Origin: an uncultured Nitrososphaerota archaeon | Lineage (GTDB): Archaea > Thermoproteota > Nitrososphaeria > Nitrososphaerales > Gagatemarchaeaceae | Assembly (NCBI GenBank): GCA_963718895.1 | Contig: CAVRAG010000007.1 | Span: forward strand, 512,001-576,000 | Reading direction: 5' to 3' | DNA length: 64,000 nucleotides | Shown: in pieces, positions 2,635 through 63,540 of the stretch | Layout of the letters: every line of letters starts with the position of its first letter | How positions within the stretch are numbered: the stretch's first letter is position 1 | Made by a program: the position numbers and the translations under genes | Notes under the pieces: model-generated | The model's input: the letters and a program-made list of their open reading frames with translations, nothing else | What the model was told of the DNA's origin: nothing | The model's database searches: none

Positions 2635-3396
2635 ATGCAGAAGAGAGCACTCTACTCCCAGTTGGCGCCGTACTACGACAGGATATACTGGGGCAAGGAC
2701 TATGGCAGGGAGGTAGAGTTCCTCGTCGAGCTCTTCCGCAGGAACGGGGTGTCTGGAAGACGCCTGTTGGAGGTCGGCTGCGGGACCGGCAACCACACGA
2801 AGCTCTTCGTTCGCCTAGGATATCAGGTGACCGGGGTCGACCTCAGCGAAGACGTCCTGAAGGTCGCGGCGGGGAAGGTGAGGCACGGCGCGAAGTTCAT
2901 CCGCGGCGACATGAGGGACCTCGGCTCCGCGGTCGAGGGGCAGTTTGACGAGGTCGTCTGTCTCTTCAGCACAATCTCCTACAACCTCACGAGGTCAGAC
3001 CTGAAGAAGACTTTGCGCGGCTTCTTTGACCACGTGACCGACGACGGGATCGTCGCTTTCGACACACACTTCACCAAGAAAGGGTTCCTTGACGGATATC
3101 GTGGCGAGGACATCTTCGATGACGGGAAGGTAATCGGCGCCAGGCTCAGCACCTCGAAGCGCCGCGGGGACATCGGAGAAATCTCCTTCACGTACCTGAT
3201 CAAGGACGGCCGAAAAGTGATTACGCTCAGGGATGACGTGCACAAGCTCGGGCTCTTCGTCCCCGAGGACTTCATTGAGGTTCTCAGAGATGTCGGATTC
3301 AAGACGACGGAGGCGTTCTCGGACTGGAAGTTCAGGAGAGGTAGCAACACCGCCCCATTCAAGGATACGATATTCGTGGGTCGCAAGGGCGATTAG
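2635..3396 (+). CDS. Class I SAM-dependent methyltransferase
   Basis: LLEVGCGTG motif I, GVDLS, GDMRD. Confidence 0.9.
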   Translation: MQKRALYSQLAPYYDRIYWGKDYGREVEFLVELFRRNGVSGRRLLEVGCGTGNHTKLFVRLGYQVTGVDLSEDVLKVAAGKVRHGAKFIRGDMRDLGSAVEGQFDEVVCLFSTISYNLTRSDLKKTLRGFFDHVTDDGIVAFDTHFTKKGFLDGYRGEDIFDDGKVIGARLSTSKRRGDIGEISFTYLIKDGRKVITLRDDVHKLGLFVPEDFIEVLRDVGFKTTEAFSDWKFRRGSNTAPFKDTIFVGRKGD

Positions 3397-4586: not shown

Positions 4587-4702
4587 GGAAGTGTCATGAA
4601 CAGCCCGCGATCGCCCTCTCGCAGGTTCTCGCCGGGCGTGATGGTGGTGTTCACTGTCCGCGACGGCCAGGAGGACCAGCTTCCGACGAAGAGTGGCACT
4701 CG

Positions 4703-34400: not shown

Positions 34401-35540
34401 TCACGCCACGGCGCCGGCCCTGCGTAGACGCTCTATCTGTTGAGGTCCGTAGCCGAGCCGGCGCAGGACAGGATTCGTGTGCTCCCCTAGCGAAGGCGAG
34501 CCTCTCTCGGTCCCTGCGGAGGCGAAGCGGAGAGGCTGGTTCACCACCGGCGTGCCGCCCAGCTTCGTCACGGCCCCGGTCTCCCTAGCCCACTCCGAGT
34601 CCAGCGCCTCGCCGATGTTCAGAACGGGCGTGACGCAGGTCTCCACCCCCATCAGGAGTTCCGACCAGACCTCCTGGGTCCTGGAAGCAAAGACCCTCCT
34701 CATCTCCCTTGCCAGCCTAGACCGGTCGCGCTCTGTCCCGTCTCGCAGGTGTGCGAGGCGAGAGAGACCGAGAGCGCGCATCAGGTTCTCCCAGAAGCGG
34801 GGCTCGACGGCAGCGACCGCCAGATACTTCCGGTCGGCCGTCTGATAGATTCTGTAGTAGGGCTCGGAGCCGAAGACCATTCCCTTCCCGCGCAGAGCGG
34901 ACTCCCCCGTCGCGAAGTACGACGAGGCAGGGAGGATGAGCAGCGACATCAGCGACTGGACCATGGGCACGTCGATGTACTCCGCCCTCCTGTCCCTACC
35001 CTTCTGGAGGACCGCCAGAATCCCCAGCGCCGCGTACATCCCCGAAACATAGTCCCCAAGTTGAACGAACGGGACCTCGGGCCTTCTCGCCGAGCCCAGC
35101 AGTCCGCTCATGGCCTCGATGTTCAGGTCGTGGGCGGGCATGGAGCTCAGAGGGGACGTGTGGCCGAAGGACGAGATGGAACAGTAGACGATCCTCCTAT
35201 TGAGCTTCCTCACCTCTTCAAAGGAGAAGCCCAGCCTCTCCGCGGCCCCGGGCCGAAAGCCCTCCAAGAAGACGTCGGAGCGCCTGATGAGCCTCCGGAG
35301 GACCTCCTTGCCTTCCTTCTTCTTCAGGTCGATCCCGACGCTCAGTTTACCACTGTTCACCACGGTGTTGGCGAGACTGGAGCCGTCGACGAGGGGTGGT
35401 AGGTCGCGCATGTAGTCACCGAGTCCGGGCTCTTCGACTTTCACGACCTCGGCTCCGTAGGAAGAGAGCAGATGAGTGCAGAATCCGCCCGGAAGGAGCC
35501 GGGTTATGTCGAGGACTTTGATTCCCTTCAGGGGAAGCAT
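34401..35540 (-). CDS. CaiB/BaiF family III CoA-transferase / alpha-methylacyl-CoA racemase-like
   Basis: LLPGGF, GAEVVKVE, EGFRPG, AHDLN, GDYVSG. Confidence 0.9.
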   Translation of the reverse strand: MLPLKGIKVLDITRLLPGGFCTHLLSSYGAEVVKVEEPGLGDYMRDLPPLVDGSSLANTVVNSGKLSVGIDLKKKEGKEVLRRLIRRSDVFLEGFRPGAAERLGFSFEEVRKLNRRIVYCSISSFGHTSPLSSMPAHDLNIEAMSGLLGSARRPEVPFVQLGDYVSGMYAALGILAVLQKGRDRRAEYIDVPMVQSLMSLLILPASSYFATGESALRGKGMVFGSEPYYRIYQTADRKYLAVAAVEPRFWENLMRALGLSRLAHLRDGTERDRSRLAREMRRVFASRTQEVWSELLMGVETCVTPVLNIGEALDSEWARETGAVTKLGGTPVVNQPLRFASAGTERGSPSLGEHTNPVLRRLGYGPQQIERLRRAGAVA

Positions 35541-35594
35541 GGCGGGGGGGCCGCTGCGCCGCGCATAAAACCTAAAAGAAGCGAATAAGCGGTC

Positions 35595-35687
35595 TCAGAA
35601 GACGATGAGGTTTACGCCGTCCCAGTCTGATCCCGGGATAGCTCCATGGGAAAATGATGAACTCGCGACGATACTGAGTCGTTCTGA
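35595..35687 (+). ncRNA. Box C/D guide sRNA (predicted 23S rRNA 2'-O-methylation guide)
   Basis: C ACGATGA 35602-35608, D' CTGA 35627-35630, TCCC/GGGA spacer stem, C' ATGATGA 35654-35660, D CTGA 35674-35677, terminal complementarity TCAGAAGAC/GTC(G)TTCTGA; D' guide complements the conserved 23S P-loop; AT-rich promoter-like tract at 35565-35578. Confidence 0.85.
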
Positions 35688-36897
35688 TAACTCCGGAGGG
35701 AGGCTCGTGTCTCCCTCCGAGTTAGCTTCGAGGCATCGACTCTAAGGATTAGGGGCTCTCCCACACTAGCCACATTCCCCTTCATTGCTTCAACTGCCCC
35801 GCCTTTCGCCTCCTCAGGCAGGGAACGGTCGAACGTCAACCGCCCCCTCCGAGCTTGATTCACTGCCGCCACCACATCTCGGTCCCTCCATCTCTTGCAT
35901 CCAGGACACCACAGCCGTCTGTGTCTCTCTCTGCTATCTTGGAGTCTCTCCCCGCATCGATAGCAAGTTGTTGACGTACCCCTTGTCTCCCCCTTGGTCA
36001 GGTGGATAATGGGCACTCCATCCCATGCAGCCTTGTATTCTATCTGCCTCTGCGCTTCGCGAAAGGTCCATGAATTCATTCTGCGCCTGTGTGTCACCCC
36101 TTGCCGATTGCCACGTCTGTACAGCGCCCGAATACCGGTGATATTTTCCAGAACGATGGCCTCTCCATTGGCATGTGCCTCATTGACTATGAATCTGGTC
36201 GCACAATGGAGGAGGTGGTTGATTCTGTTCCTTCTGCGAGTACCGTACTTGGAGGCAATTGCCTTCAACACTCGCGGTCGTTCCGCTTGAACGATCCGAC
36301 TACTTCCCCAGTTGTTTCTGCTATCTCCACCGCCTTTCCAAGATCAAGATGGACAACCCTCTCTCCATTGCCGTAGGTTAGGTTGCGCAGATTTCTATCC
36401 AGGCCTGATGTGGTCTTGAAGTCCATCGGTTCCACAACTTTCGAGAAAGTTATGCTTACTGCGTGCTCCGTAAGCGTGAAAGATCGAATCCTCGAATCTA
36501 GGCTTGACAGCATTTCTTGAGTGTGAGCATCGAGTTCGATGACATATCGTTCCCTTTTTCGAATCGGTATCTTCAGCATTCCATTCTCTACGGAGAAACC
36601 GTAACAAGACGTGACCATCAGCCTAAGAGCGTAAGGGTCTCTTGTCCTAATGCCTCTCCTAATCGACTTCTTCCTCGATGACAGTATTCCAGCAGCTCTT
36701 GATATCGCACAGAGCTTGTAATAGGATAGGCAGTCATATCGCCCAAGGGCTTTGTAGCTCAGCCTAGAGAGTCTCCTAAGGGTAGAAGCATCGTTAGCAA
36801 GTCCAATTCTGATGCAGTCGTTGGTCATGCACCTGAACGTCTCGAGCAAAGGAAGGAGTTCTTTCGGTAGATCGCATCGTTGTTTGACCGATTTCAT
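35612..36897 (-). CDS. tnpB: RNA-guided endonuclease TnpB; frameshift near 36273
   Basis: RuvC-I GLDRN, RuvC-II IVLENI, QIEYKA, Zn finger CYRCG..CPGC, RuvC-III DRDVVAAVN; split over ORFs 36265-37092 and 35612-36271. An in-frame ATG also exists at 37074. Confidence 0.92.
35669..35680 (+). repeat. 12-bp direct repeat, copy 1 (CGATACTGAGTC)
   Basis: Identical to 37139-37150; contains the sRNA D box. Confidence 0.95.
35681..35855 (-). ncRNA. Predicted TnpB omegaRNA/reRNA scaffold overlapping the tnpB 3' end
   Basis: Hairpin GGGCGGTTGA-CGT-TCGACCGTTC, pairing GGGGCA/TGCCTC, terminal hairpin AACTC-GGAGGGAG/CTCCCTCC-G-GAGTT ending ...ATCAGAAC; position typical of omegaRNA; boundaries inferred. Confidence 0.6.
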
Positions 36898-37138
36898 TGC
36901 CACCAAAGGCAGAGAACACTTGACTTTCGAATCGGCGGGTGCAGATGAGGACCTGTGCTCTCCTCTAATCGGTGGGTCGCACGAGCCGCCTGCAAGAGTT
37001 GGAAAGGAGGTAGGCTCTGGGAGTCGCTTGCCCGTTTCGGAGCACCGAGTCCTTGGCTCGCGGGCGTCGTTCATGGATAGTGATAATTGCAATCAATAAA
37101 AGGACAGCGGAGTCGATTTTGATCTGCGACTCGCTTTT
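35681..37138 (-). mobile_element. TnpB-only IS200/IS605-like element flanked by a 12-bp direct repeat
   Basis: Visibly lower GC; tnpB; subterminal hairpins at 35689-35723 and 37106-37135; CGATACTGAGTC on both sides; no tnpA. Confidence 0.75.
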
Positions 37139-37150
37139 CGATACTGAGTC
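37139..37150 (+). repeat. 12-bp direct repeat, copy 2 (CGATACTGAGTC)
   Basis: Identical to 35669-35680; ACTCGC also recurs upstream of both copies, 2 nt versus 4 nt away. Confidence 0.95.
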
Positions 37151-37187
37151 AATAAAGTATTCAAGAGGCCCCTGGGAAACACCAGGG

Positions 37188-37376
37188 ATGCTCGTAATCA
37201 AAAGTGTGAAGGTCCACGGCGATACCCACAAGGTCCTCAAGCTGATCAAGGAACAGAGGCGGGCCAAGAGCATGGACGAGGTCGTCAGGGACCTGGTCAG
37301 GGGTGCCACGGGCAAGAGCGTCGAGCAGTTCGCGTCGCAGAAGAAGAACTCGAAGCTCACGTCCTTCATAGAGTAG
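37188..37376 (+). CDS. Small ribbon-helix-helix / antitoxin-like DNA-binding protein
   Basis: KSVKVHGDTHKVLKLIKEQRRAKSMDEVVRDL beta-alpha-alpha pattern; ATG 37188. Confidence 0.7.
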   Translation: MLVIKSVKVHGDTHKVLKLIKEQRRAKSMDEVVRDLVRGATGKSVEQFASQKKNSKLTSFIE

Positions 37377-62451: not shown

Positions 62452-63540
62452 CTATCCCAAAGAGCCGAACTCGTGAATCACGCCTTTCAGTACCTTGATG
62501 GAGCTGAGGTAGTCGGACGCTTCGACGTACTCCCCTTCCGTGTGCTCGAGCTTCGAGTCTCCCGGACCGTACGTGACGCAGGGAATCCCCATGAGCTGAG
62601 CTAGGGTGTTCATGTCCCCGGTGCCAGTCTTGTGGGTCAGCACGGGCCTGGCAGCAAGGTTCTTGATTATCGAACGCTGGAACGCCCTGACTATCAGCGA
62701 GTCCTTGGGCGCCTCGTACGCCTCCGTGGCTTCGTCGAAGCGGAGCTGAAATCGTGCGCCGGATCTGGTCAGGGCGTGGTCCTCGAGCAGCCTTGCGAGT
62801 TCCGCCTCGACGGCGGACGAGGTCGATCCGGGAGGTATCCTCACGTCGAGCGTGACGGTGCAGGACTTCGGGATGACGTTTGAGTACGAGCCTCCGCGGA
62901 TCATCGTTACCGAGACGTTCACAGAGCGGTAGTGGTCGTCCCCTGCTGCGCGCGCTTTCTCGTAGTCTCTCATCTTGAGGACAGCCCCCATCGCCTCGTC
63001 AACTGCGCTGACGTGGGCCCAGGAGGAGGACGCATGCCCTCCGCTGGTCCTGGCGGTCAGCACACCCTCCACCCTGCCACGGTAACCGACCGCGACGCGA
63101 TGCGCCCCTCCGGGCTCTCCGAAGACCGCAGCCTCATAGTCACCGCCGTCTTCTATGATCGTCTTGACGCCGAGGCTGTCCCCCTCCTCCCTGGTCACGC
63201 AGGCCATAGTCACGCGGATCGAGGGGTCCGCCGAGGCCGCGGCCGCAGTTATCATCGCACACATGGGGGCCTTGGCGTCCGCGGCGCCTCGGCCGTAGAT
63301 CCTGTCCCCATCCCTCCGGACCCTTATCACACCGGGGACGGTGTCCATGTGGCCACAGAGGAGCAGGTGCCTCTTCCCCGTCCCTCTCTCGCCTATGGCG
63401 TTCCCGGCCCTGTCGGTGCGGACGTTCTTGAATCCCAGGTCCCGCATCCTGGACTGAATCAGCCGCGACAGCCGGGACTCCTTGTTGGAGGGGGAGTAGA
63501 CCCGGAGCGCGTCTAGGAGGAGCCGGACCTCATCTTCCAC
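62452..63540 (-). CDS. lysK: [LysW]-lysine/ornithine hydrolase (M20 family)
   Basis: [39 protein letters not shown]; the true ATG may be 63548 with an indel. Confidence 0.92.

Follow-up and report, generated by a model that had tools for sequence, protein, structure and literature searches.

Insertion sequences of the IS200/IS605 family lack terminal inverted repeats and target duplications and insert directly 3' of a 4-5-nt target, according to the accessible text of two reports (PMC13565253, PMC3119063). TnpBs with inverted-repeat ends are described, in the available portions of PMC10691335 and PMC13565253, as rare associations with DDE transposases, in IS630, ISL2 and IS1031. TnpB-derived repressors use guides of 9-16 nt with a seed of ~6 nt, and a guide of ~16 nt is also stated, in the accessible part of 10.1101/2023.11.30.569447. 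Here we describe a solo tnpB element on the minus strand of a 64-kb stretch of DNA from an uncultured Nitrososphaerota archaeon (assembly GCA_963718895.1, contig CAVRAG010000007.1, positions 512,001 to 576,000), the whole of which is called the window. A thaumarchaeal insertion-sequence survey files elements of this kind under IS200/IS605, as far as its accessible text goes (PMC6563490).

A sequence-only reading of the window had noticed that the guide predicted for this TnpB matches the left flank of its own element. It proposed either (a) RNA-guided repression through a seed-only match, or (b) a non-canonical insertion that duplicates the start of the guide and uses the 3' end of a non-coding RNA (ncRNA) gene as attachment site. 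In our analysis, the repeat is probably the target, duplicated when a non-autonomous TnpB element, now decayed, was inserted. The element would be ~1.45 kb long, with its right end at 35681 and its left end between 37102 and 37138, and would have inserted at the 3' edge of a C/D box small RNA (sRNA) gene, upstream of an open reading frame (ORF) that starts at 37188. It would belong to a lineage found in Nitrososphaerota and Bathyarchaeia records, in which the right end (omegaRNA hairpin and CAGAACC) and the left end are inverted repeats, and in which insertion duplicates the target, usually by 8 bp. The guide would be transcribed from the DNA just past the right end, that is, from the right copy of the duplication, and its first bases would reappear at the left junction behind a T-purine motif found on the left only.

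The guide would thus match the left flank because it is the right copy of a duplication made by insertion. A seed and a motif resembling a target-adjacent motif (TAM), the short motif that TnpB needs beside its target, would be built into the element's own left junction, and their presence there is therefore no evidence for regulation by itself. We infer that the window subfamily inserts like its duplicating relatives, and that the duplication left the sRNA gene intact.

Direct repeat at the ends of the window element

The two copies of the repeat and the ends of the element lie as follows:
35661 to 35680, no strand assigned: right copy of the repeat, plus strand reading ACTCGC-GA-CGATACTGAGTC
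35681 to 35725, minus strand: right end of the element, a terminal hairpin (CTAACTCGGAGGGAG...CTCCCTCCGGAGTTA) and the single-stranded tail TCAGAAC as folded, in a layout shared with the relatives
37102 to 37128, minus strand: left terminal segment, with the exact terminus somewhere within 37102-37138
37129 to 37150, no strand assigned: left copy of the repeat, plus strand reading ACTCGC-TTTT-CGATACTGAGTC
37150 to 37157, minus strand: motif tract reading CTTTATTG; on the plus strand AATAAAG (37151-37157), the TATA-like tract of the 37188 ORF

The exact 12-mer CGATACTGAGTC occurs only twice on the plus strand, at 35669-35680 and 37139-37150, with a spacing of 1470 nt. Beside both copies lies a second block, ACTCGC (35661-35666 and 37129-37134), with GA between it and the 12-mer in the right copy and TTTT in the left copy (a 2-nt versus a 4-nt loop); the repeat comprises 12 + 6 matching nt over 20-22 nt. 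In the sRNA, the right copy corresponds to the D guide and D box; on the minus strand it follows directly after the scaffold end ...GAGTTATCAGAAC (35681-35725) and makes up the first 20 nt of the predicted guide. The left copy, which on the minus strand reads GACTCAGTATCG...GCGAGT and is preceded by CTTTATT, lies 1448-1470 nt from the right end, where the left terminus is expected; the start codon at 37074 and a TATA-like box are on the inner side of it, between the two copies. Since the base after AGAAC is conserved in the relatives and is G in the window, the repeat can be read either as 12 nt after AGAAC or as 11 nt after AGAACG. Self-BLAST and tblastn detected no further copy of the element or of the repeat in the window. 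The exact 12-nt duplication with six further matches after a 2x4 loop, as first reported from the sequence, is borne out by these coordinates and by the statistics below.

For comparison, 653 homologous proteins were collected at E <= 1e-5, 15 of which were aligned, together with 80 related loci labelled Thaumarchaeota/Nitrososphaerota, Bathyarchaeota and a few others (best protein identity 67%; the source genome of the window is absent from the set). Some of the loci, such as those on the L004, L042 and L049 contigs, come from complete genomes with many copies. The right end could be placed in 70 of the 80 loci, which with the window gives 71. Tests on upstream sequence cover the 58-60 loci with enough upstream DNA, depending on the test.

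A chance origin of the window repeat is unlikely. Exact matches of at least 12 nt, anchored at the first base after AGAAC, were found in the own upstream 850 nt of 2 of 58 loci, against 1 of 3306 cross-locus controls. Given the 12-mer, the null probability that an exact 6-mer follows, with loops of 0-5 by 0-5 nt allowed, is 0.012, and the gapped alignment score of the two copies (13.5) was reached by none of 1000 shuffles. The control and shuffle counts also speak against a repeat that is independent of the element, whether by chance or because the 3' end of the sRNA had earlier been partly duplicated around the landing site. The left copy could indeed be a decayed sRNA fragment, with a spacer of 15 nt versus 13 nt in the intact gene, and a possible TGAT stands upstream of both copies. 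However, both copies start exactly at the edges of the element, and the element's own 8-bp duplication, which would then be expected at the junctions, is absent; we consider an independent repeat extremely improbable.

Right ends, target duplications and a one-sided motif in the relatives

Protein conservation among the 15 aligned homologues runs ...LRVDASKL...SYQN, beyond which the tails diverge. SYQN is encoded by TATCAGAAC, with QN as CAG AAC, and the homologous ORFs, without a stop codon of their own, continue into the flank. In all 71 loci the RVDA(S/P)K codons are followed by a hairpin, then by [CT]AGAAC and one more base, after which conservation ends. This base is C in 66 of the 71 loci, T in three and G in two, the window being among the latter. 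Six or seven of the seven stem pairs are kept in 55/71 loci despite 44 different 5' arms, and these compensatory changes in the terminal hairpin point to a conserved structure. The segment 35681-35725 is the 3' end of a predicted omegaRNA-like scaffold that overlaps the 3' end of tnpB. Judged by the 71 loci, the scaffold end and guide position given for the window by the sequence-only reading were right to within one base.

In the relatives, the right end consists of the hairpin and [CT]AGAAC-C, and its inverted repeat (GGTTCTGTTAAC...) forms many of the left ends. In 19 of 59 loci, a strong inverted match to the right end begins at most 5 nt from its tip, ~1265-1380 nt upstream (for example GGTTCTGTTAACTTATCGTCGG). 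The termini begin with GGTTCTGT, GGCTCTGT or GGCACTGT, and the left copies of the duplication are followed by GGTTCTGTTAACTYATCGTCGG or similar, that is, by the inverted repeat of the right end. When the 8 nt outside both ends were compared in the 19 loci with strong inverted repeats, no difference was found in five loci, one in three and two in three. Exact matches of at least 8 nt, anchored one base after AGAAC, occur in the own upstream region of 18 of 58 loci, versus 45 of 3306 cross-locus controls; an 8-mer copy with at most one mismatch lies 1200-1480 nt upstream in 27 of 60 loci, the chance expectation being ~0.11 per locus.

Unoccupied sites in three related genomes directly confirm the 8-bp target duplication in the relatives. 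At position 2534 of locus L007 the unoccupied site reads CCCATA-GAAAAACT-ATTTC, with a single copy, and the same site is occupied in L052, where ...CCCATA-GAAAAAGT is followed by the left end, the element, the right end and GAAAAAGT-ATTTC. Further unoccupied sites, more diverged, are found in L007 at 5808 (compared with L069) and on the reverse strand of L023 at ~2650-2950 (compared with L003). With inverted-repeat ends, 8-bp duplications and three unoccupied sites, this family contradicts the premise of an insertion that leaves the target unduplicated. Reading (b) was right in that a non-canonical, duplicating insertion is a property of the family, but not in that the 3' end of an ncRNA gene serves as a general attachment site, since the flanks vary.

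Of the 27 loci, 22 have T at position -2 before the left copy (binomial P = 9e-11), and position -1 is occupied by G in 14 and by A in nine (purine in 23/27). Without two orthologous duplicates and four doubtful matches, T at -2 and a purine at -1 are each found in 19 of 21 loci. No mirrored motif follows the right copy in the 27 loci. The left-only T-purine motif is probably the TAM, because a symmetric preference of a transposase would be mirrored. In the window, TTG (37152-37150) fits the motif if the base after AGAAC is counted as part of the element. The AT-rich motif that had been noted before the repeat is present (CTTTATT), but the motif that recurs is T-purine and not TTTATT. Sequence following AGAAC recurs upstream of tnpB in 27 of 60 homologous loci, mostly behind T-purine, a recurrence for which the sequence-only reading had proposed to look.

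These results bear on reading (a), in which TnpB-omegaRNA would bind the TAM and an 11-12-nt seed (37139-37152) without cutting, and would repress its own promoter or the 37188 ORF. In the window the orientation is correct, with the motif 5' of the match on the guide-sense strand and overlapping the AATAAAG of the 37188 ORF, and by analogy with the repressors that use 9-16-nt guides (10.1101/2023.11.30.569447, accessible part) an 11-12-nt match could plausibly be bound. However, the window tnpB is frameshifted, its catalytic triad is intact, unlike that of known repressor derivatives, and the relatives L001 and L002 lack such a match. In the other relatives, the motif and an 8-nt seed arise from the duplication, beside unrelated genes: flanks vary between loci, a few orthologous pairs excepted, and neighbouring genes are not conserved. 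No positive evidence for seed-only repression was obtained, the match being explained by insertion, and we regard such autoregulation as very unlikely.

Several observations weigh against target duplication as the origin of the window repeat. The repeat is ~20 nt long with an internal 2-versus-4-nt difference, which a fixed 8-bp staggered cut leaves unaccounted for, and the last base of the window right end is G where C is usual. At the far left of the window element, L001 and L002, terminal inverted repeats scored no better than shuffles, and no flanking repeat was found in L001 and L002, the nearest relatives with full upstream sequence. The evidence for inverted repeats and duplications comes from subfamilies more distant than these two, at ~49-63% protein identity in the best segment, and even in the strong inverted-repeat set the flanking 8-mers have 3-8 mismatches in 8 of 19 loci. 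The unoccupied sites belong to the insertions of three relatives and not to the window's own site. A linked transposase was not found either, tnpB alone recurring among 244 flank ORFs of at least 200 amino acids (aa) at the 80 loci.

By the same ORF recurrence, with flank ORFs not scanned against Pfam, no DDE transposase was seen within ~4 kb of the 80 loci. A transposase may act in trans.

Other flanks deserve mention. The likeness of the L030 flank to its own MTNDC coding stretch (score 13, control maximum 15) was treated as chance and rejected as a repeat. In L005 and L025, the right flank continues after the 8-bp copy with GTTCTGTG, which resembles the start of a left end and may be a tandem or nested remnant.

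The tnpB gene, the left end and neighbouring genes

The genes and remaining features at the locus are:
35594 to 35684 (ends approximate), plus strand: C/D box sRNA-like gene, with its 3' end abutting the element
35612 to 36271, minus strand: C-terminal frame of tnpB (RuvC Glu, zinc finger, RuvC Asp), from the ORF list, Pfam and homologues
36265 to 37074, minus strand: N-terminal frame of tnpB (ORF 36265-37074/37092), from the ATG at 37074 to the frameshift
36965 to 37000, minus strand: internal inverted copy of the right-end hairpin region, 26/36 identical
37095 to 37101, minus strand: TATA-like box TTTTATT, centred ~24 nt upstream of the ATG at 37074
37188 to 37376, plus strand: ORF of 62 aa with its ATG at 37188, from the ORF list

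The C-terminal frame of tnpB matches PF07282 (Cas12f1-like_TNB, E = 5.5e-14), is 58-75% identical to homologues, of which P0001-P0007 are the closest at 65-75%, and, lacking its own stop codon, reads through the right end into the flank. The gene is frameshifted near 36262-36276, where a tblastn search with a full-length homologue spans both frames, and the window copy has no uninterrupted reading frame for TnpB. The RuvC triad is complete (GLDRN 36391-36405, VLEN 36143-36154 and RDRD 35873-35887), with all three in invariant alignment columns. The ORF list and Pfam revealed no tnpA in or beside the element, and the unit bounded by the repeats holds tnpB alone, with no tyrosine or serine integrase gene inside it. 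The intact triad, the frameshift and the missing tnpA had been stated before and are confirmed by alignment, ORFs and Pfam. Likewise, AATAAAG (37151-37157), the ATG at 37188 and the minus-strand TTTTATT (37095-37101) stand where they were said to be. Judged solely from its spacing to the ATG at 37074, this TTTTATT is a probable tnpB promoter borne by the element.

The left terminus is placed between 37102 and 37138, as bounded by the promoter and N-terminal extension on one side and by the flanking repeat on the other. In the window tnpB, ~60 codons precede the usual MKSVKQ start (36897). This in-frame N-terminal extension aligns weakly with those of the homologues P0009, P0018, P0011 and P0024; it is conserved in L001, L002, P0009, P0011, P0018 and P0024, extending in L002 to 1455 nt or more from the right end. 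Within the subfamily the extension (36897-37074 in the window, minus strand) has 40-85 codons, is rich in Ser, Pro and Gly and holds an inverted copy of the right-end hairpin; it may be coding sequence or conserved end DNA. BLASTP detected no homology between the N-terminal extension of P0001 and that of the window, and support from the multiple alignment was weak.

The internal inverted copy at 36965-37000 (score 32, matched by 1 of 1000 dinucleotide shuffles) is the sole significant inverted repeat in the window element. It was rejected as the left terminus, since the in-frame region upstream of it is conserved in relatives, and is taken to be subterminal. A 7-10-nt flank match in L001 was likewise rejected as a flanking repeat, since it falls within the conserved portion of the element. 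In L002, ~1640-1660 nt upstream of the right end, a GCAGTAGAAT motif resembles the right-end tail of another subfamily and may mark an adjacent older element.

The sRNA-like gene possesses its boxes in the right order, namely C (ACGATGA, 35602-35608), D' (CTGA, 35627-35630), C' (ATGATGA, 35654-35660) and D (CTGA, 35674-35677), with a D guide of 13 nt and a D' guide of 18 nt, against ~12 nt as usual for a C/D box sRNA. A D' spacer of 18 nt is long for an archaeal sRNA. The Rfam matches are weak and all below the gathering score (SNORD31 22 bits, GlsR4 20.8 bits, snoPyro_CD 16.1 bits), and no match at the gathering score was found in the 64-kb window; the label of C/D sRNA, which draws on the boxes and on these weak matches, is tentative. 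In the Rfam alignments, the D' guide UUUACGCCGUCCCAGU before CUGA (35608-35630, plus strand) is nearly identical to the guide consensus of the eukaryotic SNORD31 and of GlsR4 from Giardia, which suggests a conserved ribosomal RNA target. The right-end tail ATCAGAAC, in the window (35681-35690, plus strand) and at the right ends of the relatives, reads GTTCTGAT on the other strand; in the window this gives a D-box-like CTGA just 3' of the sRNA D box, and the tail may extend pairing with AGAAGAC just 5' of the C box; both the CTGA and the pairing are probably coincidence.

The 37188 ORF had been labelled a ribbon-helix-helix gene. Pfam did not confirm this label: no family was found at E <= 0.01, and the single match was DUF7889 (E = 0.07). 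A CoA-transferase gene occupies 34401-35540. Elsewhere in the window, ARAGORN predicts a 92-nt tRNA-Ser(CGA) at 62778-62869 (plus strand), without Rfam support at the gathering score.

Long repeats at ncRNA genes and comparison with known systems

Similar to the window, the relative L036 has an ncRNA gene within its repeat, and only these two loci do. In L036 an intact tRNA-Val(CAC) gene lies upstream (3143-3219), and a partial copy (4595-4663) directly past the right end. The copy starts one base after AGAAC, covers the tRNA-Val from ~position 27 to its 3' end, and consists of 19 identical nt, 23 nt that replace the 5-nt variable loop, and 27 identical nt. The rest of the tRNA and ~50 nt stand between the left copy and the recognisable left end. 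The 23-nt insert ends in ...CGCTAGAAT, resembling the tail of another right end. Both the window and L036 keep an intact ncRNA gene and have a repeat of approximately guide length before the first difference. L022 has a 17/20 repeat starting from the right end, with a score (12.5) at the 99th percentile of controls. In this locus, the copy of the right flank stands 35 nt outside the left end (~1335-1315 nt upstream of the right end), and a degenerate partial second copy of the left end is found beside the real one (segment ~1308-1280 nt upstream of the right end).

Recombination, and not a transposase, might have made the ~20-nt repeat of the window, which we judge unlikely, in either of two ways. 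A circular element carrying a short stretch of a related sRNA could have integrated by a single crossover in the 11-12-nt identical block, or TnpB could have cut an unoccupied allele ~20 nt from the TAM, with an occupied copy then serving as repair template and the unmatched flap being retained. Both variants put a guide-length repeat against both ends and allow an internal difference. The window repeat extends 19-20 nt from the right end, about the length of a guide, and its termini look imprecise, without a terminal inverted repeat and with G as last base; the 19 + 27 identical nt of L036, the 17/20 repeat of L022 and the intact ncRNA gene copy kept in both strong cases point the same way. 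Nonetheless, only two or three of ~59 loci show such repeats, L022 scoring at the 99th percentile of controls, and no circular form or donor locus was seen. The internal difference falls at positions 12-13, which is not the expected cut site, and in L036 the distance of the left copy from the left end speaks against the flap variant. For both strong cases, an ordinary insertion with local change afterwards may equally have been the origin. Target duplication on insertion is the reading that we prefer for the window.

A more speculative proposal, which we consider quite doubtful, is that TnpB is coupled to a duplicating transposition route in this archaeal lineage. Three claims would then hold jointly. 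First, T-purine would be the TAM, and the omegaRNA guide, made up of the 8-bp duplication and the bases downstream, would target the unoccupied allele; such targeting, if true, would drive the insertion through chromosome copies or populations. Second, having only an 8-nt seed at its own left junction would shield the occupied allele from cutting. Third, the 19-20-nt repeats at ncRNA genes (window, L036, perhaps L022) would be scars of RNA-guided recombination and not the work of a transposase.

With target duplication as the explanation, the match of the guide to the left flank calls for no new regulatory mechanism. The solo TnpB group, which is widespread in Nitrososphaerota/Thaumarchaeota and Bathyarchaeia records, departs from textbook IS200/IS605 in its inverted-repeat ends, 8-bp duplications, one-sided T-purine motif and a predicted guide whose first 8 bases are the duplication. 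This changes the prediction of guides, TAMs and element boundaries at such loci, and raises the question of which enzyme moves these solo TnpB elements. The group would also be a natural case for RNA-guided homing when excision is not scarless. In the texts that were searched and read we found no description of this arrangement or of an 8-bp duplication in archaeal solo TnpBs; supplementary tables, notably those of PMC10691335, may cover it.

Similar to IS1341-type solo tnpB elements of the IS200/IS605 family, the window element encodes a Cas12f1-like_TNB domain and the RuvC D-E-D triad and contains no transposase gene. As in the IS1341 type, an omegaRNA-like scaffold overlaps the 3' end of the ORF and stops at the right end, and the guide comes from the flank. 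Of the Y1 TnpA in cis, or the TnpA-type hairpins at both ends, that belong to IS200/IS605, the analysis covered tnpA, which is absent from the element and its flanks, and the right end, which has a hairpin. In contrast to IS200/IS605, inverted-repeat ends and 8-bp duplications occur among the relatives, the window copy is flanked by a 20-nt repeat, and the T-purine motif is set off from the left end by the duplicated 8 bp.

The GGTTCTGT-type termini and the 8-bp duplication also appear to resemble the IS6/IS26 family, which has a DDE transposase, GG..CTGTT termini and 8-bp duplications; the likeness of the termini extends over ~9 terminal bases only. The window family differs from IS6/IS26 in its cargo of tnpB and guide RNA, without a DDE transposase; no IS6-type gene was seen in its flanks, and no IS6-like element with matching termini was found in the flanks of the relatives. 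Integrase elements with an attachment (att) site in the 3' part of a tRNA gene are similar to the window and L036 in that the repeat is the 3' part of an ncRNA and one intact gene is kept. They differ in that the units described here have no integrase gene, measure 1.4-1.5 kb and in most relatives lie away from ncRNA genes.

With DDE-borne TnpBs, as described in the main text of PMC10691335, relatives of the window element share symmetrical inverted repeats and solo TnpBs with transposon-like ends that are presumably mobilised in trans. Symmetrical terminal inverted repeats are present in 19 of 59 relatives, and in the window only the internal copy is significant. That text, whose supplements may list the branch, does not mention an 8-bp duplication, GG(Y)(W)CTGT termini or archaeal hosts, all of which this family has (PMC10691335). 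As for the TnpB-derived repressors (TldR), binding to a short TAM-proximal match near a promoter is conceivable in the window too. The window locus differs from TldR in its intact RuvC triad, its frameshifted gene, a match that is explained by insertion and the lack of a conserved neighbour or target among relatives.

Fanzor1 in eukaryotic DDE transposons is similar to the window family in having inverted repeats, target duplications and a guide RNA that spans the right repeat (PMC13565253, PMC10530073, accessible text). In the former text, the 5' duplication of Fanzor1 is interpreted as belonging to the TAM, and the 3' duplication to the scaffold (PMC13565253). Unlike in Fanzor1, the duplication of the window family varies, follows the conserved scaffold and would make up the first 8 nt of the guide, with the conserved motif outside it.

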